15,180 nt of DNA from a virus, in UHGV virus genome UHGV-0058267. One strand, given 5' to 3'. Numbering within the stretch: position 1 is the first letter of the stretch; every line of letters starts with the position of its first letter. The notes below the pieces were generated by a model, which saw only the letters and a list, made by a program, of their open reading frames with translations, ran no database searches and was not told the origin of the DNA. Below, in pieces: positions 239 to 15,180 of this stretch. The position numbers and the translations under genes were made by a program.

Positions 239-535
239 ATGCTTACGAAAGAACCATCATTTGCATCGCTGCTGGTAAAACAAAGCCCGGCAATGCACTA
301 CGGTCACGGCTGGATCATGGGTGAGGATGGTAAACGCTGGCATCCGTGTCATTCACAAGATGAATTGCTGTCTGAATTGACCACGGGGAAACGGAGAAAG
401 TCAAAATGTATGCAGCGGAAAGTGAAGTGGTTTATCAGTTTCGTTACAGAGGGGAGAGTTATTCAGTACCTGAAGATGATTTGCTCTGTTGTTATCCGTC
501 GTTGTCGGGCGATGGCAGTTACTTTTTCACGCTAA
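239..535 (+). CDS. Fil-like (phage filamentation protein family) small early protein. The 3' end is uncertain because the ORF runs 130 nt into the next gene.
   Basis: ATG at 239 is preceded by GAGGTG (230-235). The N-terminus MLTKEPSFASLLVKQSPAMHYGHGWI... is the conserved start of P2/186-group Fil-like proteins as I recall them. Remembered family members are shorter than the 98 aa here. Confidence 0.45.
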   Translation: MLTKEPSFASLLVKQSPAMHYGHGWIMGEDGKRWHPCHSQDELLSELTTGKRRKSKCMQRKVKWFISFVTEGRVIQYLKMICSVVIRRCRAMAVTFSR

Positions 536-630
536 AGGATGGGACGTTTTTACGGGGAGAGCAGGTTAAAGAAACGATACGAAAAAATGTATCTCCTCTT
601 GAACGTTACCGTAATAACAAACAACGATAG
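406..630 (+). CDS. Conserved hypothetical P2/186 early-operon protein
   Basis: 74-aa ORF with ATG at 406 preceded by ACGGAGAAAG. It lies in the same orientation within the early gene string. No recognisable catalytic motif. Confidence 0.5.
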   Translation: MYAAESEVVYQFRYRGESYSVPEDDLLCCYPSLSGDGSYFFTLKDGTFLRGEQVKETIRKNVSPLERYRNNKQR

Positions 631-652
631 TTGCGTTTTGGGGATATGAATT

Positions 653-1295: not shown

Positions 1296-1522
1296 TGGCT
1301 GATGCAATGGATCTCGTACAGCAGCGCGTTGAAGAAGAACGCCAGCGCCATATCCGTGCTGCCCGTGCCAAAACGCCGGGCGTGTCCCGCGTGCTTTGCA
1401 TTGAGTGTGAAGCGCCAATTCCGCCAGCACGCCGCCGCGCCATTCCAGGTGTGCAGCTTTGCATTACCTGTCAGGAAATCGCAGAACTGAAAGGCAAACA
1501 TTACAACGGAGGTGCTGTATGA
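1295..1522 (+). CDS. TraR/DksA-family C4 zinc-finger protein (P2 orf83-like)
   Basis: Contains CIECEAPIP...N...CITCQ, a four-cysteine finger with the family spacing. 75 aa. Translationally coupled on both sides (TAATG upstream, ATGA downstream). Confidence 0.85.
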   Translation: MADAMDLVQQRVEEERQRHIRAARAKTPGVSRVLCIECEAPIPPARRRAIPGVQLCITCQEIAELKGKHYNGGAV

Positions 1523-2376
1523 GCACCATCCTGAAATGGGCGGGAAATAAAACGGCCATTATGGCAGAACTGAAAAAATACCTTCCTGCTGGCCCGCGAC
1601 TGGTTGAACCTTTCGCGGGTTCCTGTGCTGTGATGATGGAGACGGATTACCCCAGCTATTTGGTTGCGGATATTAATCCTGATTTAATCAACCTCTATAA
1701 AAAGGTTGCCGCTGATTGTGAATCGTTTATATCTCGCGCCAGAGTTTTATTTGAGAACGCAAACAGGGAGATGGCTTATTACAACATAAGGCAGGAGTTT
1801 AATTACTCAACTGAAATTACTGATTTCATGAAAGCAGTATATTTCCTGTATCTCAATCGTCACGGTTACCGTGGTTTATGTCGCTATAACAAGAGCGGGC
1901 ATTTCAACATTCCCTACGGTAATTATAAAAATCCGTATTTCCCTGAAAAAGAAATTCGTGCATTTGCAGAAAAAGCCCAGCGGGCAACATTTATCTGCGC
2001 CAGCTTCGATGAAACGCTGGCAATGTTGCACGCGGGAGATGTGGTGTATTGCGATCCGCCGTATGACGGTACGTTTTCCGGCTATCACACTGATGGTTTC
2101 ACTGAAGATGACCAGTATCACCTGGCATCCGTTCTTGAACATCGGTCATCAGAAGGACATCCAGTCATTGTTTCTAACAGTGACACATCCCTGATCCGTT
2201 CGCTGTATCGCAATTTTACTCACCACTATATCAAGGTAAAACGCAGCATCGGTGTGGCAGCTGGCGAGGGTAAATCAGCAACAGAAATCATTGCTGTTTC
2301 CGGGCCGTGCTGCTGGATGGGATTTGATTATTCGCGTGGCGTGGATAGTTCTGCCGTGTACGGAGTACGTGTATGA
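1519..2376 (+). CDS. dam: Dam-type DNA N6-adenine methyltransferase (orphan; no partner endonuclease visible)
   Basis: Starts [11 protein letters not shown]. Carries the AdoMet motif EPFAGSCAV and the catalytic DPPY motif ([10 protein letters not shown]). ATG at 1519 overlaps the TraR stop (ATGA). The upstream extension to 1459 lies inside the TraR gene and is discounted. Confidence 0.9.
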
Positions 2377-4787
2377 GTCATGACGATATGAGCAACTCTA
2401 GCGGCTTTAACGAGGCCGCTGCAGCATTTTCATGGAACGGCCCGAAAAAGGCCATTAACCCTTATCTGGACCCGGCGGAAGTTGCGCCGGAGTCTGCACT
2501 TTCAAACCTGATCACTCTGTACGCTGCCGATAATGAGCAGGAACAGCTGCGCCGCGATGCACTGAGTGAGCAGGTCTGGGAGCGTTATTTCTTTAATGAA
2601 TCTCGTGATCCTGTCCAGCGCGAAATGGAGCAGGATAAGCTCATTAGCCGGGCAAAGCTGGCGCATGAACAGCAGCGTTTTAACCCGGACATGGTCATTC
2701 TGGCGGACGTCAGCGCCCAGCCCACCCATATTAGCAAGCAGCTGATGCAACGTATCGAATACTTCAGCAGCCTGGGCAGGCCAAAGGCTTATTCCCGCTA
2801 TTTGCGTGAGACGATTAAGCCATGTCTGGAGCGACTGGATTGTGTACGTGACAGTCAGCTGTCTGCTTCTTTCCGTTTTATGGCAAGCCATCAAGGGATG
2901 GAGGGCCTGCTGATCCTGCCTGAAATGAGTCAGGATCAGGTGAAACGCCTGTCCACCCTGGTAGCTGCGCATATGAGCATGTGCCTTGATGCAGCTTGTG
3001 GCGATTTGTATGCCACCGATGACGTTAAGCCAGAAGAAATCCGCAAGACATGGGAAAAGGTGGCGGCGGAAACCCTGCGTCTGGATGTCATCCCACCTGC
3101 GTTTGAGCAACTCCGTCGGAAAAGAAACCGCCGTAAACCCGTGCCCTATGAACTCATTCCGGGTTCGCTGGCGCGTATGTTGTGCGCCGACTGGTGGTAT
3201 CGGAAATTATGGAAGATGCGTTGCGAATGGCGGGAAGAGCAGTTGCGTGCTGTCTGCCTGGTCAGCAAAAAAGCATCTCCCTATGTCAGCTATGAAGCCG
3301 TGATGCATAAACGTGAGCAGCGCCGTAAGTCGCTGGAGTTTTTCCGTTCTCATGAACTGGTGAACGAAGACGGCGACACGCTGGACATGGAGGATGTGGT
3401 AAACGCCAGCAGCAGCAACCCTGCGCATCGCCGCAATGAGATGATGGCCTGTGTTAAAGGTCTGGAGCTTATCGCGGAAATGCGCGGTGACTGCGCCGTT
3501 TTCTACACTATCACCTGTCCGTCACGTTTCCATTCCACGCTCAACAACGGCAGACCCAACCCGACCTGGACAAATGCGACGGTAAGACAAAGCAGCGATT
3601 ATCTGGTCGGCATGTTTGCTGCATTTCGTAAGGCAATGCACAAAACCGGGTTGCGCTGGTATGGCGTGCGGGTGGCTGAGCCGCACCATGACGGTACTGT
3701 GCACTGGCATCTCATGTGCTTCATGCGTAAAAAAGACCGCCGCGCCATCACTGCATTACTGCGTAAGTTTGCCATCCGTGTAGACCGCGAGGAGCTGGGC
3801 AACAACACGGGGCCACGCTTTAAGTCTGAGCTGATTAACCCGCGCAAAGGAACACCGACAAGCTACATCGCGAAATACATCAGTAAGAACATTGACGGGC
3901 GTGGTCTGGCTGGCGAGATCAGCAAGGAAACGGGTAAATCCCTGCGTGATAACGCCGAATACGTTAATGCCTGGGCGTCTCTGCATCGTGTTCAGCAGTT
4001 CCGCTTCTTTGGTATTCCGGGACGTCAGGCTTACCGTGAACTTCGCTTGCTGGCTGGTCAGGCGGCAAGGCAACAGGGTGACAAAAAAGCAGGTGCGCCG
4101 ATACTGGATGACCCGCGCCTTGATGCCATCCTGGCTGCTGCTGATGCTGGTTGTTTTGCCACCTACATCATGAAGCAGGGCGGCGTACTGGTTCCCCGTA
4201 AATATCACCTTATCAGAACCGCTTATGAAATCAACGAAGAGCCGACCGCCTATGGCGATCACGGCATTCGTATTTATGGCATCTGGTCACCCATTGCAGA
4301 GGGCAAGATCTGCACTCATGCAGTGAAGTGGAAAATGGTTCGTAAGGCCGTTGACGTTCAGGAGGCGGTAGCCGACCAGGGCGCTTGCGCCCCTTGGACT
4401 CGTGGCAATAACTGTCCCCTTGCTGAAAATTTGAACCAACAGGAGAAAGATAAATCAGCAGATGGGGACCCCAGAACGGATATTATCAGCATGGATGACA
4501 AGGAGTTGCACGATTTCCTGCACAGTATGAGCAAAAAAGAGCGCCGGGAACTGGCAGAAAGGCTTCGCCTGGTTAAACCGATACGGCGTAAAGACTACAA
4601 ACAGCGAATTACAGACCATCAGCGACTGCAGCTCGTCTATGAGCTGAAGTCCAGAGGATTTGATGGTAGCGAGAAAGAGGTCGATTTACTCCTTCGCGGC
4701 GGCAGTATTCCGTCAGGAGCAGGCCTGCGTATCTTCTATCGGAACCAGCGTTTGCGGGAAGATGATAAGTGGCGGAACCTGTATTAA
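2373..4787 (+). CDS. A: P2 gpA-type replication initiation endonuclease (HUH rolling-circle nickase)
   Basis: 804 aa. HUH-type metal motif in [17 protein letters not shown], and paired catalytic tyrosines in [10 protein letters not shown] (the YxxxY of gpA). The start overlaps the dam stop (ATGA at 2373-2376). Confidence 0.95.
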
Positions 4788-4879
4788 TTACGCGGGTTAA
4801 CAATTCGTGCTCTAAATAATACCCGGTATATCAGGCTGATGAACGTAAAAAAACGTTTTACATCAGTAAGATTATTGTA

Positions 4880-4914
4880 TACTGTGAATATAAACAGTGG
4901 TTATATATACAGTA
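4880..4914. promoter_or_regulatory. LexA (SOS) operator: one near-consensus box plus an overlapping degenerate second box
   Basis: 4880-4899 reads TACTGTGAATATAAACAGTG, i.e. CTG-N10-CAG with an AT-rich spacer, against the consensus TACTG(TA)5CAGTA. 4895-4914 reads CAGTGGTTATATATACAGTA, i.e. GTG-N10-CAG with one mismatch in the CTG arm. Both lie 27-60 nt upstream of the ATG at 4941. Confidence 0.65.
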
Positions 4915-4940
4915 TTGCGTGTGGTGTCATAGGAGGAAAA

Positions 4941-5129
4941 ATGCAGGACTATTTTTTGGAGTCTTTGAAGCTCCAGCGCATTGATTTTTTTCTTAAGCTT
5001 GTCGCGGCTAGTGAGTGTAGTGATGAAGAGAAGGGGCTGGCTCTGCAGTGGGTTTCTGAATTGACTGATGAACTCATGGCAAAAATCAGAACTCACGAAT
5101 ACAACCGCTCAATGGATGTCATCAGTTGA
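4941..5129 (+). CDS. Small SOS-controlled protein of unknown function; possible antirepressor-type partner of the DinI-like gene
   Basis: 62 aa. ATG at 4941 is preceded by AGGAGGAAAA. The longer track ORF from 4839 would start upstream of the LexA boxes and promoter region, so it is discounted. Confidence 0.5.
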   Translation: MQDYFLESLKLQRIDFFLKLVAASECSDEEKGLALQWVSELTDELMAKIRTHEYNRSMDVIS

Positions 5130-5139
5130 GGTGACTTTT

Positions 5140-5373
5140 ATGCGCATTGAAATAATGATCGATAAAGAGCAGAAGATTAGCCAGTCTACCCTGGACGCCC
5201 TTGAATCCGAGCTTTACCGCAATCTGCGCCCCCTGTATCCCAAAACGGTAATTCGTATCCGAAAAGGTAGCTCTAACGGTGTGGAACTGACCGGACTGCA
5301 ACTGGACGAAGAAAGAAAACAAGTGATGAAAATTATGCAGAAGGTGTGGGAAGACGACAGCTGGCTGCATTAA
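5140..5373 (+). CDS. DinI-family protein (P2 orf91 / 186 SOS-operon type)
   Basis: 77 aa. MRIEIMIDKEQKISQSTLDALESELYRNL...WEDDSWLH has the length, N-terminal MR(I/V)E pattern and acidic Trp-containing C-terminus of DinI. RBS TGAGGTGA at 5127-5134. Confidence 0.85.
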   Translation: MRIEIMIDKEQKISQSTLDALESELYRNLRPLYPKTVIRIRKGSSNGVELTGLQLDEERKQVMKIMQKVWEDDSWLH

Positions 5374-5462
5374 GAAACGTTGCTGGCATCAGTACTTGAT
5401 TCTGAAGCCAGCAAGGTTGAACAACGAGCAGGGCGAGGCGTTAGTGTTATCATCAAAGAATT

Positions 5463-6020
5463 TCACATAAACATCTGGATTTGCTCGTTTTTTAGTTGGT
5501 TGATTTTTTCGCGCAATCTGATCTTTTCATCAGCTTTTTCCAAAGAGGCTGGTGACATGCAGTTAATCAAAGCGTCAAGGTGCTCTGGAGATTTGATAAT
5601 AAAGAACTTTTTGTATTTATTAACAAAAACGACAGAGCATTTTTTACGTTTAAGAAGCTCAATCACGTTACTCAGAGTACCCGTGCTCTTCGTATCCCAA
5701 ACCATTAATCCATAATCGGCTTCTTCTGCCATTTTGAGATCTTTCGCAGTGAAAAACGCGCGAGTGCCGGCTGCATGGCTAGTACTTACTACATGTACAG
5801 GCCATGAGCCAAGATTATTGCGCGGTTTTTCTGAGCTACTGAATACTGTGGCTTTTTCACATCCAAGTTCTAGCAATACGCGTTGAACAGATGAATCAAC
5901 ACCATTGGCATCACCAACTACAATACGAAAACGCGAGTTAACAATTTTTTTCAGACGATCCACGATGAGTGTGTCAAGGTTTTTGATGGTTATTGAACCA
6001 GCAACAAATACCGTAGTCAT
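5463..6020 (-). CDS. DprA/Smf-like (SLOG Rossmann-fold) protein; ShosA-like component
   Basis: Contains VFVAGS...RIVVGDANGVDSSVQ, the GxAxGxD nucleotide-binding signature of DprA/SLOG domains, and a C-terminal coiled-coil tail. ATG at 6020 lies 5 nt after GGAGATAG. The track start at 6032 is a TTG inside the upstream gene. The gene starts 2 nt after the PRTase stop. Confidence 0.7.
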   Translation of the reverse strand: MTTVFVAGSITIKNLDTLIVDRLKKIVNSRFRIVVGDANGVDSSVQRVLLELGCEKATVFSSSEKPRNNLGSWPVHVVSTSHAAGTRAFFTAKDLKMAEEADYGLMVWDTKSTGTLSNVIELLKRKKCSVVFVNKYKKFFIIKSPEHLDALINCMSPASLEKADEKIRLREKINQLKNEQIQMFM

Positions 6021-6022
6021 CA

Positions 6023-6604
6023 CTATCTCCAAGTCAAAGCTGCAACATAAATGCTTCTAACCTTAGTATAATCGTTTAGCACAGCACAAGCAGCCTCCAT
6101 AGATGCGCCTGTATGGTAGAGGTCGTCAATGATAAGGACATTCCAGTTGCCATTATTCTCAATACTGTCATTAACAGAGAACGAATTACCCAGCGCCGTG
6201 ATTTTCTCTTCTTTTGTATTCAGGTTCTTTAGCGAAGCCCCGCCGGGGGCTTTCAACAAGAGGTCATCGAAGCATGGTTTGCCAACTAGTTTGGCTAGTT
6301 CCTGAGCTATTTCGGTCACTGGCTGGCGTGCACGCTGATTAGATGCAGCCATTGGAACGATAAACCCGACATTGCTGAAATGAGGAAAGGCATGCTCTGC
6401 TAGGCATTGGGCTAAAGGCTTAACTTGTGACCAATCGTCACGGTATTTAAGCTGGAAAAGAGATTCGCCTACCTCAGTACGCTCAGTCTCAAACCGCATA
6501 TGTCCCCACTCATCGTAACCAATGGGAATGCTGCGGATGCTGTGTTTATCCATCGCAAGACCTAATTCCCAATTTCCAACAATCTGTTTTATGTTGACTT
6601 TCAT
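6023..6604 (-). CDS. ComF/GntX-like type I phosphoribosyltransferase; ShosT-like component
   Basis: PRPP-binding loop VLIIDDLYHTGASM (aa 156-169, acidic pair D160-D161). 193 aa. It is the first gene of a two-gene minus-strand operon. Confidence 0.8.
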   Translation of the reverse strand: MKVNIKQIVGNWELGLAMDKHSIRSIPIGYDEWGHMRFETERTEVGESLFQLKYRDDWSQVKPLAQCLAEHAFPHFSNVGFIVPMAASNQRARQPVTEIAQELAKLVGKPCFDDLLLKAPGGASLKNLNTKEEKITALGNSFSVNDSIENNGNWNVLIIDDLYHTGASMEAACAVLNDYTKVRSIYVAALTWR

Positions 6605-6875
6605 GGCTCACCGTTTGCTGTGTAAAACACCAAAGACTACCTCTTGTTATATTTGGTGAAAGCGAAAGTTTCATTTTTTGCAGTGGAGATCAAATGTTAC
6701 TCCGTGAACATTTTTAGCATGTGGCCTCGCTACACGGTTTGGCGTAACTACTGCATGTCTATACTGCATGAATCCGCATGATCGTTTAAGGATCGCTCTA
6801 GTTGGGGCCTGCTAGGTATGGCGGGCTTTTGCTTATGTCATGCAGGTGCATGAAAACCACTATATAAAGCGGGCA

Positions 6876-6894
6876 GGCGTGGCGGGGATACGAT
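6876..6894. other. Candidate cos cohesive-end sequence (186-like)
   Basis: GGCGTGGCGGGGATACGAT compared with the 186 cohesive end as I remember it, GGCGTGGCGGGGAAAGCAT: 16 of 19 identical, including the first 13. It lies between gene A and the portal gene, where P2-family cos sits. Confidence 0.55.
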
Positions 6895-6951
6895 TGCGCT
6901 CGCATCCTTTTCGTATTAATCTGATATCAATTTAAAACGAAGAGTTCGCAA

Positions 6952-8055
6952 ATGAAAATTATTTCAATATTTAATAATAAAGGTGGTGTAGGAAAATCCA
7001 CTCTTGGATACCATACTGCGCATGCATTGGCAGAGAAAGGTATTAAAACTTTAATGATTGACCTTGATCCACAGTCGAATCTCACTTTACAGTGTATTTC
7101 TCCTGAGGAGTTAGAAAAGTTATGGCTAGAAGAAGAGCCATTTATTGAGGACTTCCAATCAGCTTTAGAGGAAAGTAAACTTTCGTATCAAGATTTTTTG
7201 AGTAAGCCGAGAAGCATTCATTGCTTATTAAAACCAATAGAAGATGGCGTCTACGAATCTTCTTCACTAAGTTCTGTTTATGAGCTTAATGATAAATTAG
7301 GTATTATTCCAGGTCGTTTAAGTTTGCATAAATATGAGGATAAAATCGCGAAGGGTTGGAGTGATGCCTTCATGGGAGAACCTCAAGCACTGCGACTTAT
7401 TACCAGTATTAGGAACTTATGTCTAGAAGCAGAGGAAAAATTTGGTTATGAAATGGTAATAATAGACACATCTCCTAGTCTCGGTATGCTTAACAGAGTT
7501 ATCATTTCTACATCAACCGGATTTTTTGTCCCATGCATGCCCGATATGTTCTCCACCTTTGGGATTACTAACATAGGAGAGTCATTAAAGAATTGGAAAA
7601 ATCAGTTCGATACCATGTATAAACTTTTGCCTGATAAAAAGAGAAATGTTTTCCCTAAAAACTTCGTTAAGTTTTTAGGTTATACTATTTATAACGCGAA
7701 GAAATATGAAGGCAGAAATGAACTTGATTTAGCGACCGCGCATTACTCATATGTTCAGAAAATTCCCAATGTGATCAAAAAACACATTCCTCAAGAATGT
7801 TATCAAGAGCAAGATCTTGCAGACATTTCACAACCAATTGGTGGAAAATCAGTTATTCACTCGCATAATACTCTTCCTTCTATGTCTCAAAAGTATAGGG
7901 TGCCCATATGGAAAGTTCCTTTCATCCAATCCATGAGCGCAGAAGACAGAGCCACTGTTTCAGGTAATAGACAGACTTTTCTTGACAAGCAGCAGGCATA
8001 TAGTGATTTTGCCGATTCTCTTTTGGCTCGTATTGATAAGATTGGAGAAGAATAG
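6952..8055 (+). CDS. ParA/MinD-family (deviant Walker A) ATPase with a large acidic insertion and a C-terminal extension
   Basis: MKIISIFNNKGGVGKST carries the KGGxGK[ST] motif with signature K10 and K15. Walker A' is LMIDLDPQ and Walker B is YEMVIIDTSPS (D172). At 367 aa it is about 100 aa longer than a minimal ParA. The DNA is very AT-rich. Confidence 0.85.
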   Translation: MKIISIFNNKGGVGKSTLGYHTAHALAEKGIKTLMIDLDPQSNLTLQCISPEELEKLWLEEEPFIEDFQSALEESKLSYQDFLSKPRSIHCLLKPIEDGVYESSSLSSVYELNDKLGIIPGRLSLHKYEDKIAKGWSDAFMGEPQALRLITSIRNLCLEAEEKFGYEMVIIDTSPSLGMLNRVIISTSTGFFVPCMPDMFSTFGITNIGESLKNWKNQFDTMYKLLPDKKRNVFPKNFVKFLGYTIYNAKKYEGRNELDLATAHYSYVQKIPNVIKKHIPQECYQEQDLADISQPIGGKSVIHSHNTLPSMSQKYRVPIWKVPFIQSMSAEDRATVSGNRQTFLDKQQAYSDFADSLLARIDKIGEE

Positions 8056-8057
8056 TT

Positions 8058-8735
8058 ATGGCTCTTAAAGAAAAATATGCGGACATTTATAGGCGTCTTA
8101 AAGATGAGATCGATGCCTATGAATATTTCATGAAGAATATTAAAAATTTTTTCGAGTCAACTAAAGTAAAAGCTCATGTCCATTCACTTCGTTTTAGGTT
8201 GAAAGATATTGATCATCTTTTAGAGAAAATAGAAAGAAAAAACCATGAGGATGATCAGTTACCTGAAGCAGAGCGAAAAGGTCATATCACAGCTGAAAAT
8301 ATTTTTAACCGTATAACGGATATAGCTGGAATAAGAGTATTACACCTTCATTTAAGTCAAATGGAAGATATACATCGTGCAATTATGAGGGCAGTAGATG
8401 AAGGGGAGTATGCGCTTTTTGAAGAGCCAAAGGCATATACTTGGGATCCTGAGTCCAAAGTTTATTTTGAGAGTTTGGGTCTTAAGCCTCATGTAAAACA
8501 AAGTTTTTATACGAGCATTCATTATGTCCTGAAACCTAATAGAGAAGGGAGTGTTACTTGTTGTGAAGTTCAAGTCAGAACTCTTCTTGAGGAGGTTTGG
8601 GGGGAAATTGATCATACAATGAATTATCCTATCCAGCATGTCGATGAGAACTGCAAAGAACAGATAAAAATTCTTGCTAGACTGATTGGCGCTGGAAGTC
8701 ATTTAGCTGATTCAATTATGAAACGCTATCAATGA
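8058..8735 (+). CDS. Small RelA/SpoT-homologue synthetase-domain protein (toxSAS-like nucleotide pyrophosphokinase)
   Basis: All core SAS motifs are present: R47-L-K49-x9-K (FRLKDIDHLLEKIERK), TD88IAGIR, Y151TSIH155 and E170VQVRTLLEEVWGEIDH. 225 aa with no hydrolase or regulatory domains. The start lies 2 nt after the ATPase stop, with GGAGAAG upstream. Confidence 0.85.
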   Translation: MALKEKYADIYRRLKDEIDAYEYFMKNIKNFFESTKVKAHVHSLRFRLKDIDHLLEKIERKNHEDDQLPEAERKGHITAENIFNRITDIAGIRVLHLHLSQMEDIHRAIMRAVDEGEYALFEEPKAYTWDPESKVYFESLGLKPHVKQSFYTSIHYVLKPNREGSVTCCEVQVRTLLEEVWGEIDHTMNYPIQHVDENCKEQIKILARLIGAGSHLADSIMKRYQ

Positions 8736-8740
8736 AGAAC

Positions 8741-8761
8741 AGGCAGGAATCATACCTGCCT
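8741..8761. terminator. Hairpin between convergent genes; probable bidirectional terminator
   Basis: AGGCAGG-aatcata-CCTGCCT: a 7-bp perfect stem with a 7-nt loop, flanked by A/T-rich sequence. It lies 6 nt after the RSH stop and 6 nt before the portal-remnant stop. Confidence 0.6.
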
Positions 8762-8766
8762 TAATG

Positions 8767-9141
8767 TTAAATAAGTTTGTAGTCTTCAAAGTTTATTATC
8801 GGCTCATCTAACCATTTGTTAATCTCCTCAATTCTCTTTTGAAGAGGTTTAAGTTCGTTCCTAACAAAAACCATACTAGCCTTCTCCACATCCCCAAACC
8901 CCCCAACATTATTAGGCATAATCCCCATCATTTGCGGCGGCACGCGGTGCGCAGCCATCATGTCATCGCGGCTGACATTTTTGATATTCAGAAACTCATC
9001 CTTCGCCGCCACCTCTGACAACGGGATAATCTGAAGCCCGTCCTTTTTGCCGTTAGGCGAGTACATAAATAGGTTGCGGAAGTTACCCAGGGCGGCGGAG
9101 CGATGAGTTCTAACGGGATCGTGGTTGATGCGCATCAGCAT
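8767..9141 (-). pseudogene. Q: 3' fragment (about 124 codons) of the portal gene Q; the N-terminal two thirds are deleted
   Basis: ...SRDDMMAAHRVPPQMMGIMPNNVGGFGDVEKASMVFVRNELKPLQKRIEEINKWL... matches the conserved C-terminal region of P2 gpQ / PBSX-family portals, which are about 340 aa in P2 from memory. Upstream of 9141 the DNA encodes V/W on the other strand. Confidence 0.8.
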
Positions 9142-9186
9142 ACTGGCGTCCTGAAAGGCGGCGATACAACCGGAGGCCCGGTATGA
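9139..9186 (+). pseudogene. V: Last ~15 codons of the baseplate spike gene V (remnant)
   Basis: The frame ending at TGA 9184-9186 reads ...HTGVLKGGDTTGGPV*. It overlaps the W start as ATGA, as V/W do in P2-family phages. Nothing resembling the rest of V lies upstream. Confidence 0.4.
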
Positions 9187-9542
9187 CGCTTTATAGCGGG
9201 ATGAACAATACCAGCGGTAAAGCTATTACTGATATTGACCATCTGCGCCAGTCGGTGCGGGACATTCTGCTGACACCGCAGGGTAGCCGTATTGCCCGCC
9301 GGGAATATGGTTCCCTGCTGTCGGCACTGATAGATCAGCCACAAAATCCGGCATTACGCCTGCAGGTCATGTCGGCAGTGTATGTGGCGCTGAGTCGCTG
9401 GGAGCCACGGTTGACGCTGGATTCCATCACCATCAACAGCAATTTTGACGGTTCAATGGTGGTGGAGCTGACCGGGCGGCGGAATAACGGTGTGCCTGTG
9501 TCCCTTTCCGTATCAACAGGAGCAGAGAATGGCAGTGATTGA
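9183..9542 (+). CDS. W: Baseplate wedge protein gpW (GPW/gp25 family)
   Basis: 119 aa. ...DIDHLRQSVRDILLTPQGSRIARREYGSLLSALIDQPQNPAL... is collinear with P2 gpW. RBS GGAGG at 9172-9176. Confidence 0.9.
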   Translation: MTLYSGMNNTSGKAITDIDHLRQSVRDILLTPQGSRIARREYGSLLSALIDQPQNPALRLQVMSAVYVALSRWEPRLTLDSITINSNFDGSMVVELTGRRNNGVPVSLSVSTGAENGSD

Positions 9543-10437
9543 CCTTTCGCAGTTGCCTGCGCCGCAGATTGTGGATGTGCCGAACTTTGAGACGCTGCTT
9601 GCCGAACGCAAGGCAGAATTTGTGGCGCTTCATCCGAAAGATGAGCAGGAGGCTGTGATCCGCACGCTGGAACTGGAATCTGAACCCGTCACCAAATTGC
9701 TGCAGGAGAACGCTTACCGTGAGTTGCTTCTGCGCCAGCGCATTAACGAAGCCGCGCAGGCGGTGATGGTGGCTTACGCGATGGGCGGCGATCTTGACCA
9801 GCTCGCTGCCAACTACAACGTGACACGCCTGACGGTGACGCCTGCTGATAATGATGCTGTGCCGCCCGTTGCAGCTGTGATGGAAAGCGATGAAGCGTTA
9901 CGCCTGCGTGTGCCTGCAGCCTTTGAGGGGCTTTCAGTTGCGGGGCCAACTGCAGCTTATGAATTTCATGCCCGAAGCGCCGACGGTCGGGTGGCGGATG
10001 CCAGTGCAACCAGCCCGGCACCTGCAGAGGTGGTGCTGACTGTCCTTAGCCGCGAAGGCGATGGAACAGCAGAAAAAGACCTGCTGGATGTGGTGGAGAA
10101 AGCCCTGAACAGTGAGAACGTCCGCCCGGTGGCTGACCGTCTGACGGTTCGCAGTGCAGAAATCATCCCGTACCGCGTGGAAGCTACCATTTTTCTCTAT
10201 CCGGGGCCGGAAGCAGAGCCGGTAATGGCAGCGGCAAAAGCCAGCCTGCAGAAGTACATCGCCAGTCAGACGCGTCTTGGTCGGGATATTCGCCGTAGCG
10301 CCATTTTTGCCGCGCTGCATGTTGAGGGTGTTCAGCGTGTGGAACTGGCTTCCCCGCTGGCGGATGTGGTCCTGAACAAAACGCAGGCGGCATCATGTAC
10401 GGAGTGGAGCGTGACCAACGGGGGAACGGATGAATAG
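9529..10437 (+). CDS. J: Baseplate protein gpJ
   Basis: MAVIDLSQLPAPQIVDVPNFETLLAERKAEFVALHPKDEQEAV... is collinear with the P2 gpJ N-terminus. 302 aa from ATG 9529 (AGGAG at 9518-9522). The track start at 9490 is a GTG inside W. Confidence 0.9.
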   Translation: MAVIDLSQLPAPQIVDVPNFETLLAERKAEFVALHPKDEQEAVIRTLELESEPVTKLLQENAYRELLLRQRINEAAQAVMVAYAMGGDLDQLAANYNVTRLTVTPADNDAVPPVAAVMESDEALRLRVPAAFEGLSVAGPTAAYEFHARSADGRVADASATSPAPAEVVLTVLSREGDGTAEKDLLDVVEKALNSENVRPVADRLTVRSAEIIPYRVEATIFLYPGPEAEPVMAAAKASLQKYIASQTRLGRDIRRSAIFAALHVEGVQRVELASPLADVVLNKTQAASCTEWSVTNGGTDE

Positions 10438-11035
10438 TCTGCTGCCACCGGGTTCAACACCACTGGAGCGCCGACTGGCACAAACCTGCAGCGGGATTTC
10501 TGATCTGCAGGTGCCGCTTCGTGACTTGTGGAATCCGGCAACCTGTCCGGTCAGTTTCCTGCCTTATCTCGCCTGGGCTTTCTCTGTGGATCGCTGGGAC
10601 GAGGGCTGGACAGAAAGCGTCAAACGCCAGGTGGTGAAGGATGCTTTTTATATTCATCAGCATAAAGGGACCACCAGTGCCGTGCGGCGGGTGGTGGAGC
10701 CGTTCGGATTCCTGATCCGCATTATTGAGTGGTGGCAGACCGGAGAAACACCGGGCACGTTTCGCCTGGATATTGGCGTGCAGGACCAGGGCATCACTGA
10801 AGATACCTATCTGGAACTTGAGCGGCTGATAAGCGATGCCAAACCATGCAGCCGTCACATGACTGGCATGTCCATCAATCTGCAGACCAGCGGTCCGCAT
10901 TGGGTAGGGGCTGCCAGCTATCTTGGCGAAGAAATCACGATCTATCCGTATATCAACGAAACGATTATTTCCGGTGGCACCGCGCATGAAGGCGGGGCGG
11001 TCCATGTTATTGACACAATGAGAGTGAATCCATGA
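10430..11035 (+). CDS. I: Baseplate / tail-fibre-attachment protein gpI
   Basis: MNSLLPPGSTPLERRLA...FLPYLAWAFSVDRWDEGW... is the P2 gpI family signature. It overlaps J by 8 nt and H by ATGA. Confidence 0.9.
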   Translation: MNSLLPPGSTPLERRLAQTCSGISDLQVPLRDLWNPATCPVSFLPYLAWAFSVDRWDEGWTESVKRQVVKDAFYIHQHKGTTSAVRRVVEPFGFLIRIIEWWQTGETPGTFRLDIGVQDQGITEDTYLELERLISDAKPCSRHMTGMSINLQTSGPHWVGAASYLGEEITIYPYINETIISGGTAHEGGAVHVIDTMRVNP

Positions 11036-12774
11036 GCACAAAATTTTATACCCTGCTGACGGAGATTGGTGCGGCGAAGCTTGCCAGCGCCACTGCACTT
11101 GGTGTGCCGCTTAAAATTACCCATATGGCGGTGGGGGATGGCGGCGGAGCATTGCCGACGCCGGACGCAAAGCAGACTGCACTGGTAAATGAGAAACGCC
11201 GGGCTGCGCTGAATATGCTTTATATCGACCCGCAGAACAGCAGCCAGATTATTGCCGAACAGGTGATCCCTGAAAACGAGGGCGGTTGGTGGATACGTGA
11301 AGTGGGCCTGTTTGATGAGTCAGGGGCATTGATTGCCGTGGGCAACTGCCCGGAAAGCTATAAGCCGCAACTGGCTGAAGGCAGCGGGCGCACCCAGACC
11401 GTGCGTATAGTGCTGATAACCAGCTGCACGGACAATATCACCCTGAAAATCGATCCTGCCGTCGTGCTGGCAACCCGCAAGTATGTGGATGACAAGGCAC
11501 TGGAGCTGAAGGTGTATGTGGATGATCTGATGGCAAAACACCTTGCCGCACCAGATCCGCATTCACAGTACGCGCCAAAAGCCAGCCCGACATTTACCGG
11601 AACCCCCAAAGCGCCAACGCCAGCGGCAGGGAATAATACCACGCAGGTTGCGACCACCGCGTTTGTACAGGCGGCACTGACGGCTCTTATTAATGGTGCG
11701 CCAGCCACGCTGGACACACTGAAAGAAATAGCCGCAGCCATTAACAATGACCCGAAATTCAGCACCACCATTAACAATGCGCTGGCACTGAAAGCGCCGC
11801 TGTCGAGTCCGGCACTTACCGGAACGCCAACAGCACCTACTGCGGCACAGTCGGTCAACAATACACAGATTGCCACCACGGCTTTTGTGAAATCGGCGAT
11901 TGCAGCAATGGTGGGTTCTGCACCTGCGGCACTGGATACACTGAACGAACTGGCGGCGGCGCTGGGGAATGACCCGAACTTTGCCACGACAATGCTTAAT
12001 GCACTGGCAGGTAAACAACCGCTGGACAATACGCTGACTAATTTGAGTGGAAAGGATGTAGCTGGTCTTCTCACATACCTTGGTTTGGGAGAAGCCAGAT
12101 TCTCTGGTCGTTTGTTAAACACGAATATTTTTAAAAGCTCTGGAAAATATATCCCAACACCAGGGACAAAAAAGATAAGGGTCATTGCCTCTGGTGGCGG
12201 TGGCGGCGGCGGTGGGGTTCCTGAAACAACAGAAAATCAGCAGGCAACAGCCGGAGCTGGATTGAGCGGCGCATTTATTGAAGCATTTTTCGAGGTTGAT
12301 AATGATTTCGAAGTCAACGTTATTATCGGTGCTGCAGGTAAAGGGGGGGGAGCCGGAGGAAATTCAGGTAGTGAAGGTGGCACAACTTATTTCGGTTCCA
12401 TGATAACTGCACCAGGTGGTACAGGCGGTGGCGCGGGGGGAGCATCTGCAAACACATCATATATTCAGGGTATTTCATGGGGTGCCAGTCCGACATCGTC
12501 CGGTACAGTACTAAGAGCATTTCGCTGTAGTGCAAAAACACCAGGAGCAATGGTTATCTCTGTTAAAGCTGTAGCAGGTGGTACCGGGGGGGATACACCA
12601 TTAGGTTCAGGCGGTATAGGTGGTGCAAGTTCTTCATCATTCAGCGGACGTGGTGGTGGTAAAGCTGAGGGCTTTGGTGCTGGCGGAGGCGGAGCCTGCG
12701 CACCTGCTGGAAGTGAGGCTCAATCGGGAGGTGACGGTGCCCCGGGAATAGTTATTGTTGAGGAGTATGCCTGA
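11032..12774 (+). CDS. H: Tail fibre protein gpH. The conserved N-terminal and shaft part is currently joined to a glycine-rich C-terminal domain encoded inside the invertible segment.
   Basis: The N-terminus MSTKFYTLLTEIGAAKLA...WWIREVGLFDESGALIAVGN is P2 H-like. It is followed by two fibre repeats. After the crossover site comes ...YIPTPGTKKIRVIASGGGGGGGG...GGDGAPGIVIVEEYA*, a typical glycine-rich fibre-tip domain. Confidence 0.9.
   Translation: MSTKFYTLLTEIGAAKLASATALGVPLKITHMAVGDGGGALPTPDAKQTALVNEKRRAALNMLYIDPQNSSQIIAEQVIPENEGGWWIREVGLFDESGALIAVGNCPESYKPQLAEGSGRTQTVRIVLITSCTDNITLKIDPAVVLATRKYVDDKALELKVYVDDLMAKHLAAPDPHSQYAPKASPTFTGTPKAPTPAAGNNTTQVATTAFVQAALTALINGAPATLDTLKEIAAAINNDPKFSTTINNALALKAPLSSPALTGTPTAPTAAQSVNNTQIATTAFVKSAIAAMVGSAPAALDTLNELAAALGNDPNFATTMLNALAGKQPLDNTLTNLSGKDVAGLLTYLGLGEARFSGRLLNTNIFKSSGKYIPTPGTKKIRVIASGGGGGGGGVPETTENQQATAGAGLSGAFIEAFFEVDNDFEVNVIIGAAGKGGGAGGNSGSEGGTTYFGSMITAPGGTGGGAGGASANTSYIQGISWGASPTSSGTVLRAFRCSAKTPGAMVISVKAVAGGTGGDTPLGSGGIGGASSSSFSGRGGGKAEGFGAGGGGACAPAGSEAQSGGDGAPGIVIVEEYA
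11584..12024 (+). repeat. Two tandem ~73-aa tail-fibre shaft repeats within H
   Basis: Repeat 1 (11584-11802): SPTFTGTPKAPTPAAGNNTTQVATTAFVQAAL..APATLDTLKEIAAAINNDPKFSTTINNALALKAPL. Repeat 2 (11803-12024): SSPALTGTPTAPTAAQSVNNTQIATTAFVKSAI..APAALDTLNELAAALGNDPNFATTMLNALAGKQPL. Confidence 0.85.
12068..12093. promoter_or_regulatory. Left recombination site (hix/gix/cix type) for the serine invertase, inside H
   Basis: TTCTCACATACC-TT-GGTTTGGGAGAA: two 12-bp half-sites around a 2-bp TT core, matching the TTnTCnnAAACC half-site pattern of Hin/Gin/Cin sites. 12080-12100 is a perfect 21-bp inverted repeat of 13516-13536. Confidence 0.85.
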
Positions 12775-13040
12775 TGAGTAATTTTGCTCTGATTGAACAT
12801 GGCGTGGTGAAAAATATTATTATCTGGGATGGAGAGGGTGATTTATTCTCTAATTGCGAAATTATAAATATTGATCATATAGATGCAGGCGTCGGTTGGT
12901 TCTATTCTGACGGAGAGTTTATAGCACCACCGGAACCGGAAATGACTGAATATGATGTTGGTAACATCGACGCGGTGATGGAAGCAGATACCAGCACCGC
13001 GCCGGGGGTTATCTGGCCAGTTCCACCTGAGATGGTTTAA
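12774..13040 (+). CDS. Small protein downstream of the active fibre tip; putative fibre chaperone or assembly factor
   Basis: 88 aa. The ATG overlaps the H stop (TGATG at 12772-12776). MSNFALIEHGVVKNIIIWDG... resembles small ORFs that I recall following glycine-rich fibre genes. No catalytic motif. Confidence 0.5.
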   Translation: MSNFALIEHGVVKNIIIWDGEGDLFSNCEIINIDHIDAGVGWFYSDGEFIAPPEPEMTEYDVGNIDAVMEADTSTAPGVIWPVPPEMV

Positions 13041-13206
13041 TCTCAATCAGAATGGGTTCGCCATTCTCGTTAACAGATATTTCCATTCCTTCAGGGATTT
13101 CAGATGCAGTAAAAAACCAGTTATCTTCTGGTAATTCCACAGCCCCGGTCACGTCATGAAGACCGGGGATTACTTCAGTCAAAGTAACAGGATTAAACAG
13201 GCGCAC
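13009..13206 (-). CDS. Alternative small fibre accessory gene, silent in the present orientation
   Basis: GTG at 13206 lies 7 nt after GGAGAG (minus strand ...cctGGAGAGtttattGTGcgc) and overlaps the stop of the silent fibre cassette by 14 nt. This gives MRLFNPVTLTEV..., 65 aa. The track start at 13296 would overlap the cassette by 104 nt. Confidence 0.4.
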   Translation of the reverse strand: MRLFNPVTLTEVIPGLHDVTGAVELPEDNWFFTASEIPEGMEISVNENGEPILIEIKPSQVELAR

Positions 13207-13548
13207 AATAAACTCTCCAGGAAAAAGCACTTGTTGATGGTCTTCCGTCGTACATCTGGCAGCGGACATAAAAACCTGTATTACTGACCTGGTCATCCAC
13301 GATCATTGAAACGTGAACGTTATTAGGTGTGGCCTCGTAATCTGTTCTTATTCTTTCCGCTATGCTGATAAAACGTGAAAGCTTAGGTAGTGCAATTGGA
13401 TAAACGACTTTAGCCAGCCCATTATCATTGGAACCACCAGTTCCAAATACTTCTATTGCACCATCTGACCAGCGTATCCATGCACCATTGACATTAGCTC
13501 CTCGCTGAATGACATATCTGGCTTCTCCCAAACCAACGTTTAAGAAAA
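13193..13548 (-). CDS. Silent, promoterless alternative tail-fibre C-terminal cassette (gp53-like tip), expressed only after inversion
   Basis: The minus-strand frame reads ...NVGLGEARYVIQRGANVNGAWIRWSDGAIEVFGTGGSNDNGLAKVVYPIALP...RVYCAPV*. GLGEAR is encoded by the shared inverted repeat, so inversion fuses it in frame to H (...TYLGLGEAR). The upstream MMPVSRNLCIF of the track ORF lies outside the segment and is fortuitous. Confidence 0.75.
13523..13548. promoter_or_regulatory. Right recombination site (hix/gix/cix type)
   Basis: TTCTCCCAAACC-AA-CGTTTAAGAAAA. The inner half-site is the exact reverse complement of the inner half of the left site, and the core AA opposes TT on the left, giving an inverted orientation. 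Confidence 0.85.
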
Positions 13549-13603
13549 TGCAGAGATTACGGCTAACTGGCATCATCTCCGGTTTTTATTCAGGGGGATG
13601 ATC

Positions 13604-14170
13604 ATGCTTATTGGCTATGTACGCGTGTCAACAAATGACCAGAACACCGATTTGCAACGTAATGCACTGAACTGCGCGGGATGTGAGCGGATTTTTGAGG
13701 ACAAAATCAGTGGCACTAAGTCCGACAGACCGGGGCTGAAAAAACTGCTCAGGACACTATCGGCAGGAGACACGCTGGTTGTCTGGAAGCTGGACCGGTT
13801 GGGGCGCAGTATGCGGCATCTTGTTACGCTGATAGAAGAGTTGCGCCAGCGTGGCGTGAATTTCCGAAGCCTGACTGACAGTATTGATACCAGTACCCCA
13901 ATGGGCCGTTTCTTTTTTCATGTCATGGGTGCCCTGGCTGAAATGGAACGCGAACTGATAGTTGAACGTACCAGGGCAGGGCTGGCTGCAGCTCGTGTTA
14001 AAGGCAGAGTAGGTGGACGCCGTCCTAAGTTGACCAGCGAACAGTGGGCACAGATTGGGCGTTTACTCGAGGCCGGAGAATCAAGACAGCGTATTGCACT
14101 GATTTTTGATGTAGGCGTTTCTACCATTTATCGAAAATTTCTGGCAAATAAGAGCAATGAATCTCCCTGA
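13604..14170 (+). CDS. Hin/Gin/Cin/Pin-family serine DNA invertase
   Basis: MLIGYVRVSTNDQNTDLQRNAL... (catalytic Ser in VRVST) followed by ...LVVWKLDRLGRSMRHL...FFFHVMGALAEMERELIVERT... and a C-terminal HTH (VSTIYRKF). ATG at 13604 lies 6 nt after AGGGGG. The track start at 13598 abuts the RBS. Confidence 0.92.
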   Translation: MLIGYVRVSTNDQNTDLQRNALNCAGCERIFEDKISGTKSDRPGLKKLLRTLSAGDTLVVWKLDRLGRSMRHLVTLIEELRQRGVNFRSLTDSIDTSTPMGRFFFHVMGALAEMERELIVERTRAGLAAARVKGRVGGRRPKLTSEQWAQIGRLLEAGESRQRIALIFDVGVSTIYRKFLANKSNESP

Positions 14171-14312: not shown

Positions 14313-15101
14313 ATGGCTCAGGATTACCACCACGGGGTGCGCGTTGTTGAAGTCAACGAAGGCACCCGATCCATTACCACGGTGAGCACAGCCATCGTGG
14401 GCATGGTCTGCACGGGCGATGATGCCGATGCAAAAATGTTTCCTCTTAATAAACCCGTACTGATCACTGATGTGCTGACTGCCAGCGGTAAAGCGGGTGA
14501 GTCCGGCACGCTGGCCCGTTCGCTGGACGCCATCGCTGACCAGGCAAAACCCGTGACCGTTGTTGTGCGTGTGCCGCAGGGTGAAACGGAAGAAGAAACC
14601 ACGACCAATATCATCGGTGCAGTGACCGCTGAAGGAAAAAAAACAGGCATGAAAGCCCTGTTATCTGCTCAGACACAGCTCGGCGTTAAACCGCGCATTC
14701 TCGGCGTGCCAGGTCATGATAACAAAGCCGTTGCTACTGAGTTGCTGAGTGTGGCGCAAAGCCTGCGTGGGTTTGCCTACCTGTCAGCATATGGCTGCAA
14801 GACGGTACAGGAGGCGATCACTTACCGTGAAAACTTCAGCCAGCGCGAAGGAATGCTGATCTGGCCTGACTTTACTGGCTGGGACACGGTGCTGAATGCC
14901 GAAGCAACGGCATATGCCACCGCCCGTGCGCTTGGTCTGCGCGCCAAAATTGATGAGCAGACCGGGTGGCACAAAAGCCTGTCCAACGTGGGCGTGAACG
15001 GTGTCACCGGAATTTCTGCAGATGTGTTCTGGGATCTGCAGGACCCGGCAACCGATGCGGGACTGCTTAACCAGAACGACGTCACCACGCTTACACGGTG
15101 A
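14313..15101 (+). pseudogene. FI: Tail sheath gene FI, truncated at codon 262 (the C-terminal third is missing)
   Basis: MAQDYHHGVRVVEVNEGTRSITTVSTAIVGMVCT...YATARALGLRAKIDEQTGWHKSLSNVGVNGVTGISADVFWDLQ... is collinear with P2 FI. P2 FI continues ...TTLIRRDGFRFWGN... to about 390 aa (from memory), whereas here it reads TTLTR then TGA. RBS AGGAGG. Confidence 0.7.
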
Positions 15102-15180
15102 AAAGCATCACGGGGGCGTTGCGCCGCTGGGTGGAAGCTAACCCGGAACTGACAGGCACACTGATGAAAGCAGCGGCTGG
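15101..15180 (+). pseudogene. Open frame running out of the window, with no start codon; possibly an internal fragment of the tape-measure gene T
   Basis: The frame from 15101 reads KSITGALRRWVEANPELTGTLMKAAAG with no stop to the window end. A W-x2-x-NPEL-x-hydrophobic/Ala stretch is typical of tape-measure proteins. The assignment rests on pattern memory only. Confidence 0.3.

Follow-up and report, generated by a model that had tools for sequence, protein, structure and literature searches.

The A-cos-Q region of P2-like phages is a hotspot for anti-phage genes, and a DprA+PRTase system originating from this region has been validated (PMC9122126). Moreover, 'grounded' or cryptic P2-like prophages that carry genes in the defence hotspot have been described, in which genes for mobility and morphogenesis are deleted or pseudogenised (bioRxiv 10.64898/2026.02.27.708500; reviews PMC6379469). 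The defence genes of such defective elements are nearly identical to those of intact phages, and it was left open whether the elements have been domesticated (bioRxiv 10.64898/2026.02.27.708500). Complete relatives of the element described here are the Escherichia phage Cartapus (Peduoviridae, Elveevirus) and the intact prophage of Escherichia coli CFSAN061762 (NZ_CP042901.1), which is integrated between rcdA and ybjL. A defective relative is the P2-like prophage of E. coli AREA_497 (NZ_CP123329.1), in which Q is directly fused to V and the head and lysis block is missing. Deletions that arise in E. coli by illegitimate events at short homologies have direct repeats of a few bases at their endpoints, of which one copy is kept, and no mobile element is involved.

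The window analysed in this study is the whole stretch of 15,180 nt, a metagenome contig (ENA ERZ1310293, NODE_2766) with a coverage of 3.6x (Table 1). The name given to a sister contig suggests the human gut as its origin. Its blocks are collinear with P2-like (Peduoviridae) genomes such as that of Cartapus at 95-98% identity, and the order of its genes, which runs from cII-fil-dam-A via cos and Q to V-W-J-I-H and further to FI and T, shows P2-like synteny. The hallmark domains Phage_GPA, Phage_portal, GPW_gp25, Baseplate_J and Tail_P2_I as well as a sheath domain are present. The best match of the window is the CFSAN061762 prophage, with which it is collinear save for two gaps. The ends of the window fall inside cII and T, and contigs sharing its first deletion joint adjoin ogr-ybjL in E. 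coli. Judged by its sequence, the element is a P2-like (Peduoviridae, Cartapus-like) prophage of E. coli.

Table 1 Features of the window (positions refer to the 15,180-nt contig)
Feature	Position	Strand	Remarks
dam (285 aa) and replication gene A (804 aa)	1519..4787	+	both uninterrupted
Stretch across the first joint	4371-9217		A 3' end, both cargo cassettes, cos, Q remnant, joint, V remnant, W start
Cargo cassette 2, A-cos hotspot	5463..6604	-	ComF/ShosT-like phosphoribosyltransferase (193 aa) and 185-aa protein, intact
cos region	6844..6902		by homology; genome ends and cos annotation of phage Cartapus
Cargo cassette 1, cos-Q hotspot	6952..8735	+	ParA-like ATPase (367 aa) and RelA/SpoT-domain protein (225 aa), intact
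Terminator-like hairpin	8741..8761	-	flanked by the RelA/SpoT-like cargo gene and the Q remnant (3' end)
Portal (Q) remnant	8767..9087	-	3' 321 nt; last 106-107 of 342 codons and stop
Chimeric ORF, 124 aa	8767..9141	-	18 antisense-V codons, one repeat codon, portal C-terminus
Deletion joint 1 (Q/V)	9082..9088		GTTACCC (7-nt direct repeat), one copy; placed by BLASTN with the intact relative and by three-way alignments
Baseplate spike (V) remnant	9082..9186	+	105 nt; last 34 of 192 codons and stop
Baseplate gene W, 119 aa	9183..9542	+	intact; GPW_gp25, E=1.5e-13
Tail genes J, I, H	9529..12774	+	intact-looking; downstream of joint 1
Serine recombinase, 190 aa	13598-14170		homologous Cartapus gene annotated as Gin-like DNA invertase
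Truncated sheath ORF, 262 aa	14313..15101	+	crosses joint 2 into out-of-frame T
Deletion joint 2 (FI/T)	15092		fusion of nt 780 of FI (tail sheath) with nt 1594 of T (tape measure); 2,995 bp missing, 1-nt overlap
T fragment	15092-15180		after joint 2

The early region of the CFSAN061762 prophage has the same layout as the window and comprises cII, fil, the genes for DUF5347 and DUF2732, traR, dam, A, orf62 and dinI. It is followed by the cargo cassettes that flank cos and by the genes Q, P, O, N, M, L and X. After X, the intact prophage carries the genes for the holin and the lysozyme, lysB/lysC, R, S, V, W, J, I and H, and then the rest of the element. In the fil region, 258 nt that are present in the window (395-652) are missing from the CFSAN061762 prophage, which has 8 nt instead. 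Since a longer Fil protein of 98 aa is encoded by AREA_497 and other relatives, this small deletion occurred in the reference and not in the window. A look-up of the DUF5347 protein revealed that CI variants of 311-313 aa occur naturally and that the hotspot cargo is highly variable. At the other end of the window, the variable region of the tail fibre (12774-14170) contains short ORFs on both strands together with the serine recombinase, and it presumably represents an invertible host-range segment that persists in the dead prophage.

The comparison with the intact relative allowed us to place the junction between Q and V at base level. The homology to Q reaches position 9088 of the window and the homology to V begins at position 9082. 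The resulting overlap of 7 nt corresponds to the heptamer GTTACCC, and the three-way alignments revealed a seamless joint with no extra DNA, IS or other insert. In the progenitor allele, that of CFSAN061762, the heptamer is found once in Q (reference positions 12293-12299, at about codon 236 of the portal gene) and once in V (20889-20895, at about codon 158 of the baseplate-spike gene), in direct orientation and 8,596 bp apart. Thus, the repeat is present at both endpoints in the progenitor, a single copy has been kept in the window and foreign DNA is absent, as is the case for deletions at short homologies. A microhomology of at least 7 nt has a probability of 6e-4 for random pairs of endpoints in the progenitor, and therefore the joint was guided by homology and does not reflect a chance overlap. 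The 26-mer that spans the joint reads GTTGCGGAAGTTACCCAGGGCGGCGG. A preliminary description of this DNA, made from the sequence without database searches, had suggested looking for microhomology at the joint, which has now been found. It had placed the joint at 9120-9190; the joint is real but lies 32 nt to the left of this interval. Moreover, the homology to the portal gene does not begin at ~9141, as had been assumed, but ends at 9087/9088, and the bases 9139-9141 form a fortuitous ATG in antisense V.

On the minus strand, the remnant of Q is 100% identical to the gene for the portal protein WP_089588520.1 of E. coli CFSAN061762, and its product matches the Pfam family Phage_portal (E=1.6e-9). 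The remnant belongs to an ORF of 124 codons, whose translation starts with MLMRINHDPVRTHRSAAL from antisense V, continues with a G encoded within the repeat and then reads NFRNLF...KLI. This protein is annotated as 'phage portal protein' at NCBI (GCZ34142.1) and had also been regarded as a portal product in the preliminary description. This is true for its last 106 residues, which are identical to the C-terminus of the intact portal protein of 342 aa, but not for the first 18 codons. The chimeric ORF gives rise to a pseudogene product, and neither the joint nor the ORF has a function of its own. On the plus strand, the extent of the V remnant was set by alignment to the intact V gene (579 nt) of CFSAN061762. 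The remnant encodes the peptide VTQGGGAMSSNGIVVDAHQHTGVLKGGDTTGGPV followed by the stop codon and comes with neither a start codon nor a promoter. The stop codon of V overlaps with the start codon of W (ATGA). It had been claimed that only the last codons of V precede an intact W gene; W is indeed intact, but 34 codons of V are left instead of the 15 that had been quoted. A scan of the plus strand from 8500 to 9600 yielded no sigma-70-like site upstream of W.

According to the annotation of the intact CFSAN061762 prophage, 8,596 bp have been lost at the single Q/V junction. The lost DNA comprises 69% of Q and 82% of V, in each case from the 5' end, and all of P, O, N, M, L, X, the holin and lysozyme genes, lysB/lysC, R and S. 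Altogether, 14 complete genes are gone, including those for the large and small terminase, the scaffold, the capsid, head completion, X, the holin, the endolysin, the spanins, R and S. The view that one junction removed the 5' part of Q, P, the head, lysis and tail-completion genes and most of V can thus be read directly from the intact counterpart. By analogy with P2, it is well supported that the element would be unable to package DNA, to build heads, to complete tails and to lyse the host, and the late promoters PP, PO and PV would have been removed as well. The gene content missing in comparison to the annotated intact prophage also supports the earlier statement that the element forms no particles and causes no lysis. 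Complementing genes may be located elsewhere in the host, for instance on a second P2-like prophage, which is compatible with a contig of 15 kb. In three relatives (L021, L024 and L025), variable inserts are located between S and V, in the region that is deleted from the window. They consist of an ORF of 176 aa, an ORF of 386 aa, and a DUF4435 gene together with a gene for an AAA_15/SMC_N ATPase. The S-V interval may be a further cargo hotspot, which the deletion would have removed.

The second gap, at joint 2, concerns the 3' end of the sheath gene, the tube gene, E/E' and the 5' half of T, and L009 and L010, two further metagenome assemblies from ENA, contain this joint as well. With 8,596 bp and 2,995 bp absent in comparison to the intact counterpart, the window shows the gene loss of a defective prophage. 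The copies of the element in isolates (L005, L006 and L007) show 0-1 differences to the window in the region 2741-9217. The deletion is recent because there are 0-1 substitutions among the copies and 100% identity to the intact prophage. Nevertheless, the lineage bearing the Q/V joint is still losing genes. In L005, L007 and L031, a further 7,270 bp are missing between H and T (3-nt overlap), while L006 has lost 11,390 bp from W to just upstream of ogr (2-nt overlap), by which the element has shrunk to about 12.6 kb. Thus, the overlaps at the other joints of the lineage amount to 1-3 nt, as compared to 7 nt at the Q/V joint. Furthermore, L005 and L006 have a +1 frameshift in dam at the equivalent of window position 1572, and the gene is called as two ORFs of 29 aa and 247 aa, whereas it is intact in the window. 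In L031 (GCA_014331605.1), an IS3 element at 10259-10369 is inserted in the Q remnant, so that 86 aa of the chimeric ORF are left; the contig breaks off within IS3, before the cargo. Gene loss is commonplace in this prophage family. Other P2-like prophages at the site next to rcdA have decayed in unrelated ways and include one with a truncated A gene and without dam and the portal gene (L012), and in another a portal fragment of 191 aa is located beside an intact terminase gene (L018).

With high confidence, we interpret the site as a passive scar that a single illegitimate deletion at short homologies has left in an E. coli prophage of the P2-like type. The window is 100% identical to both flanks of the CFSAN061762 prophage over the positions 4371-9217. 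A progenitor with two direct copies of GTTACCC, one in Q and one in V, would have undergone slipped mispairing or annealing between the heptamers, independently of RecA, which would have expelled 8,596 bp and left one copy of the repeat behind. The repeat suggests slippage or annealing as the probable molecular mechanism. The remnant was then inherited in an E. coli lineage, in which more deletions, a frameshift and the insertion of an IS element have eroded it further. That the early region and the cargo of the hotspot are still whole would be due to the short time that has elapsed, regardless of whether they are useful. Other routes to the joint were considered as well. A deletion mediated by an IS element was ruled out by the seamless joint, and the activity of an invertase was judged unlikely in view of the plain 7-nt direct repeat. 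A nested origin, i.e. a second deletion within a joint like that of AREA_497, was rejected for three reasons: the identity between the Q alleles is only 85%, the two elements carry different cargo, and T sequence absent from AREA_497 persists in the window.

In an exact-protein look-up covering NCBI, Logan and ENA, the 124-aa protein spanning the joint was found on 39 contigs, including contigs from isolates that are 265 kb (GCA_003303855.1) and 211 kb (GCA_014331605.1) long and lie next to ogr-ybjL. The presence on 39 contigs and the 100% identical chromosomal flanks of L005 and L006 indicate that the lesion is inherited. The coverage of just 3.6x and the fact that P2-like prophages often occur in at least two copies per genome (median 2 places) could raise the suspicion that the joint is an assembly artefact of a metagenome contig. 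We regard this as practically out of the question since the identical protein is encoded on contigs of up to 265 kb from independent isolate, SRA and metagenome assemblies and since an overlap of 7 nt is far short of any assembler k-mer. A misassembly, which the preliminary description had named as an outcome that would overturn its reading, can be dismissed because the joint is common to many assemblies. Thus, the Q/V joint is genuine and inherited. As to its presence in related strains, which the preliminary description had suggested checking, it is shared by the 39 contigs but absent from 5,426 complete E. coli genomes. Exact scans with the 26-mer also did not detect it in the species-representative genomes of GTDB and in the metagenomes of JGI. 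The absence from these three collections suggests that the joint marks a fairly rare lineage. The characterised isolate copies of the joint belong to one clone (clone A; L005, L006 and L007), and together with the absence from these collections this speaks against long-term vertical retention across diverged hosts.

A related question is whether both deletions of the window belong to the same element. The window departs from the isolate clone in two patches on either side of the identical core, at 923-2740 and from position 9218 onward. The patch starting at 9218, which was compared up to position 11384, is about 2.8% divergent and the changes are overwhelmingly synonymous. Such clustered synonymous differences are typical of an exchange of alleles with another P2-like phage and not of mutation in place. 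Either homologous recombination has exchanged the tail region in the lineage of the window or the contig is chimeric across 9082-9217. In the latter case, remnants with the Q/V and the FI/T joint would represent two P2-like prophages that were joined to the right of ~9217 via the identical V'-W stretch of 136 nt. The change from identity with clone A in 2741-9217 to a difference of ~2.8% from 9218 would fit a chimera, as would the right side of clone A, which is 99.96% identical to the progenitor as compared to 97.1% for the window. It would also be in line with the coverage of 3.6x and with the fact that the contigs L009 and L010, which contain the FI/T joint, stop short of the Q/V joint. However, homologous recombination between co-resident or incoming P2-like phages is common and yields the same mosaic, the second patch at 923-2740 is of the same character and the contig was recorded for two samples. 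Therefore, we consider a chimeric contig rather unlikely; it would bear on whether both deletions share one element, but not on the reality of the Q/V joint. A protein look-up found the W allele of the window in over 24,000 collection blocks from intact prophages.

The preliminary description had stated that dam, A, the cos region and both cargo cassettes are uninterrupted, and indeed their lengths are equal to those in the intact prophage. The cos region, which is 100% identical to that of the CFSAN061762 prophage, was assigned through the genome ends of Cartapus; the 19-nt cohesive-end sequence of P2 has no match with up to three mismatches. The cargo matches PADLOC models for ShosT (1.3e-8), PDC-M28B (2.2e-7), PDC-S33 (3.2e-5) and PsyrT, all of them weakly. 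For the 185-aa cargo protein, no family was matched in Pfam, NCBIfam and PADLOC, and a PDB sequence search yielded chance-level hits (E at least 0.5). Both cassettes are candidates for uncharacterised defence or toxin-antitoxin systems, and intact prophages, for example the one of CFSAN061762, contain them too.

The scar could have been followed by domestication, which means that the remnant persists because the host benefits from the cargo and possibly from immunity functions, and that selection shapes the surviving parts. In the window as well as in every variant with the joint that was seen, none of the four cargo ORFs is disrupted, and all three secondary deletions are located on the tail side and none on the early and cargo side. 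With two halves of about the same size, however, the probability that three events fall on one of them is about 0.125, which is not significant; moreover, they may be nested and not independent. The surrounding A-cos-Q region is a documented anti-phage hotspot (PMC9122126), but the weak matches to named defence systems make the role of this particular cargo in defence a putative one. The study reporting conserved defence genes in defective P2-like elements does not itself decide on domestication (bioRxiv 10.64898/2026.02.27.708500), and AREA_497 independently displays the same pattern with its intact retron. On the other hand, 0-1 substitutions across 6.5 kb among the copies and a cargo that matches the intact prophage at 100% identity cannot give a dN/dS signal, and sister copies carry the frameshift in dam and the IS3 element in the Q remnant. 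After so recent a deletion, retention tells nothing about selection. The earlier proposal of a domesticated prophage retained for its cargo reads too much into the data, and we regard domestication as a tentative and rather improbable explanation. The loss of the head genes and the persistence of W, J, I, H and the invertase region of the tail fibre might also be taken as signs that a headless P2-type tail has been kept as a bacteriocin, like the R-type pyocins. Such a tailocin consists of a complete contractile tail along with a lysis cassette. Of these parts, the window has lost the spike gene V, R and S for tail completion and the entire lysis cassette with holin, lysozyme and lysB/C. At joint 2, its sheath gene is cut short, and the tube gene, E and the 5' half of the tape-measure gene T are absent. 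Moreover, sister copies lack the genes from H to T or from W to D. This explanation therefore deserves next to no credence. It is also very improbable that the remnant is an incipient helper-dependent, cos-packaged defence island, which is mobilised by co-resident or superinfecting P2-like phages, although several traits are reminiscent of a satellite. The capsid genes are deleted while cos (6844-6902), the A/ori module and the ogr end have been kept, the lost structural genes could all be supplied by a helper, and L006 with its size of about 12.6 kb comes close to P4. In the annotations of the window and its relatives, genes for capsid-size redirection or helper derepression are not evident. 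If true, a satellite would have arisen by deletion directly from the lineage of its own helper.

Taken as the scar of a short-homology deletion, the Q/V joint fits what is known of such deletions in E. coli and has nothing unusual about it. The CFSAN061762 prophage and Cartapus, of which the latter shares a backbone that is 95-96% identical, have the same gene order and the same cargo as the window, but both are complete and carry the Q-to-V and FI-to-T blocks that are missing here. The prophage of AREA_497 (L002) is located at the same chromosomal site and represents an independent event, in which 693 nt of Q and 159 nt of V were kept with an overlap of 3 nt (12678-12680). Its Q allele is only 85% identical to that of the window, two more deletions are located in T and between T and D, and its hotspot harbours, unlike the window, the retron Ec78 (RT, PtuA and PtuB). 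Because the Q/V deletion of AREA_497 is separate and has other breakpoints, such losses recur. Thus, the element is a defective P2-like prophage that still carries hotspot cargo, i.e. a known kind of object, and it represents neither a new mechanism nor a new type of element. Its value is that of a worked example, with sister remnants at different stages: the Q/V joint only plus FI/T, then H/T, then W/ogr, in addition to the frameshift in dam and the insertion of IS3. These stages provide a time-ordered picture of the rate at which a P2-like prophage erodes after the loss of the lytic block while the cargo of the defence hotspot is still whole. The lineage could also serve as a natural system for asking whether defence genes in defective P2-like elements are stabilised by selection or have simply not yet been lost. 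In comparison to the 'grounded' P2-like prophages mentioned above, the exact progenitor allele, the joint at base level and the successive sister remnants are all resolved here.
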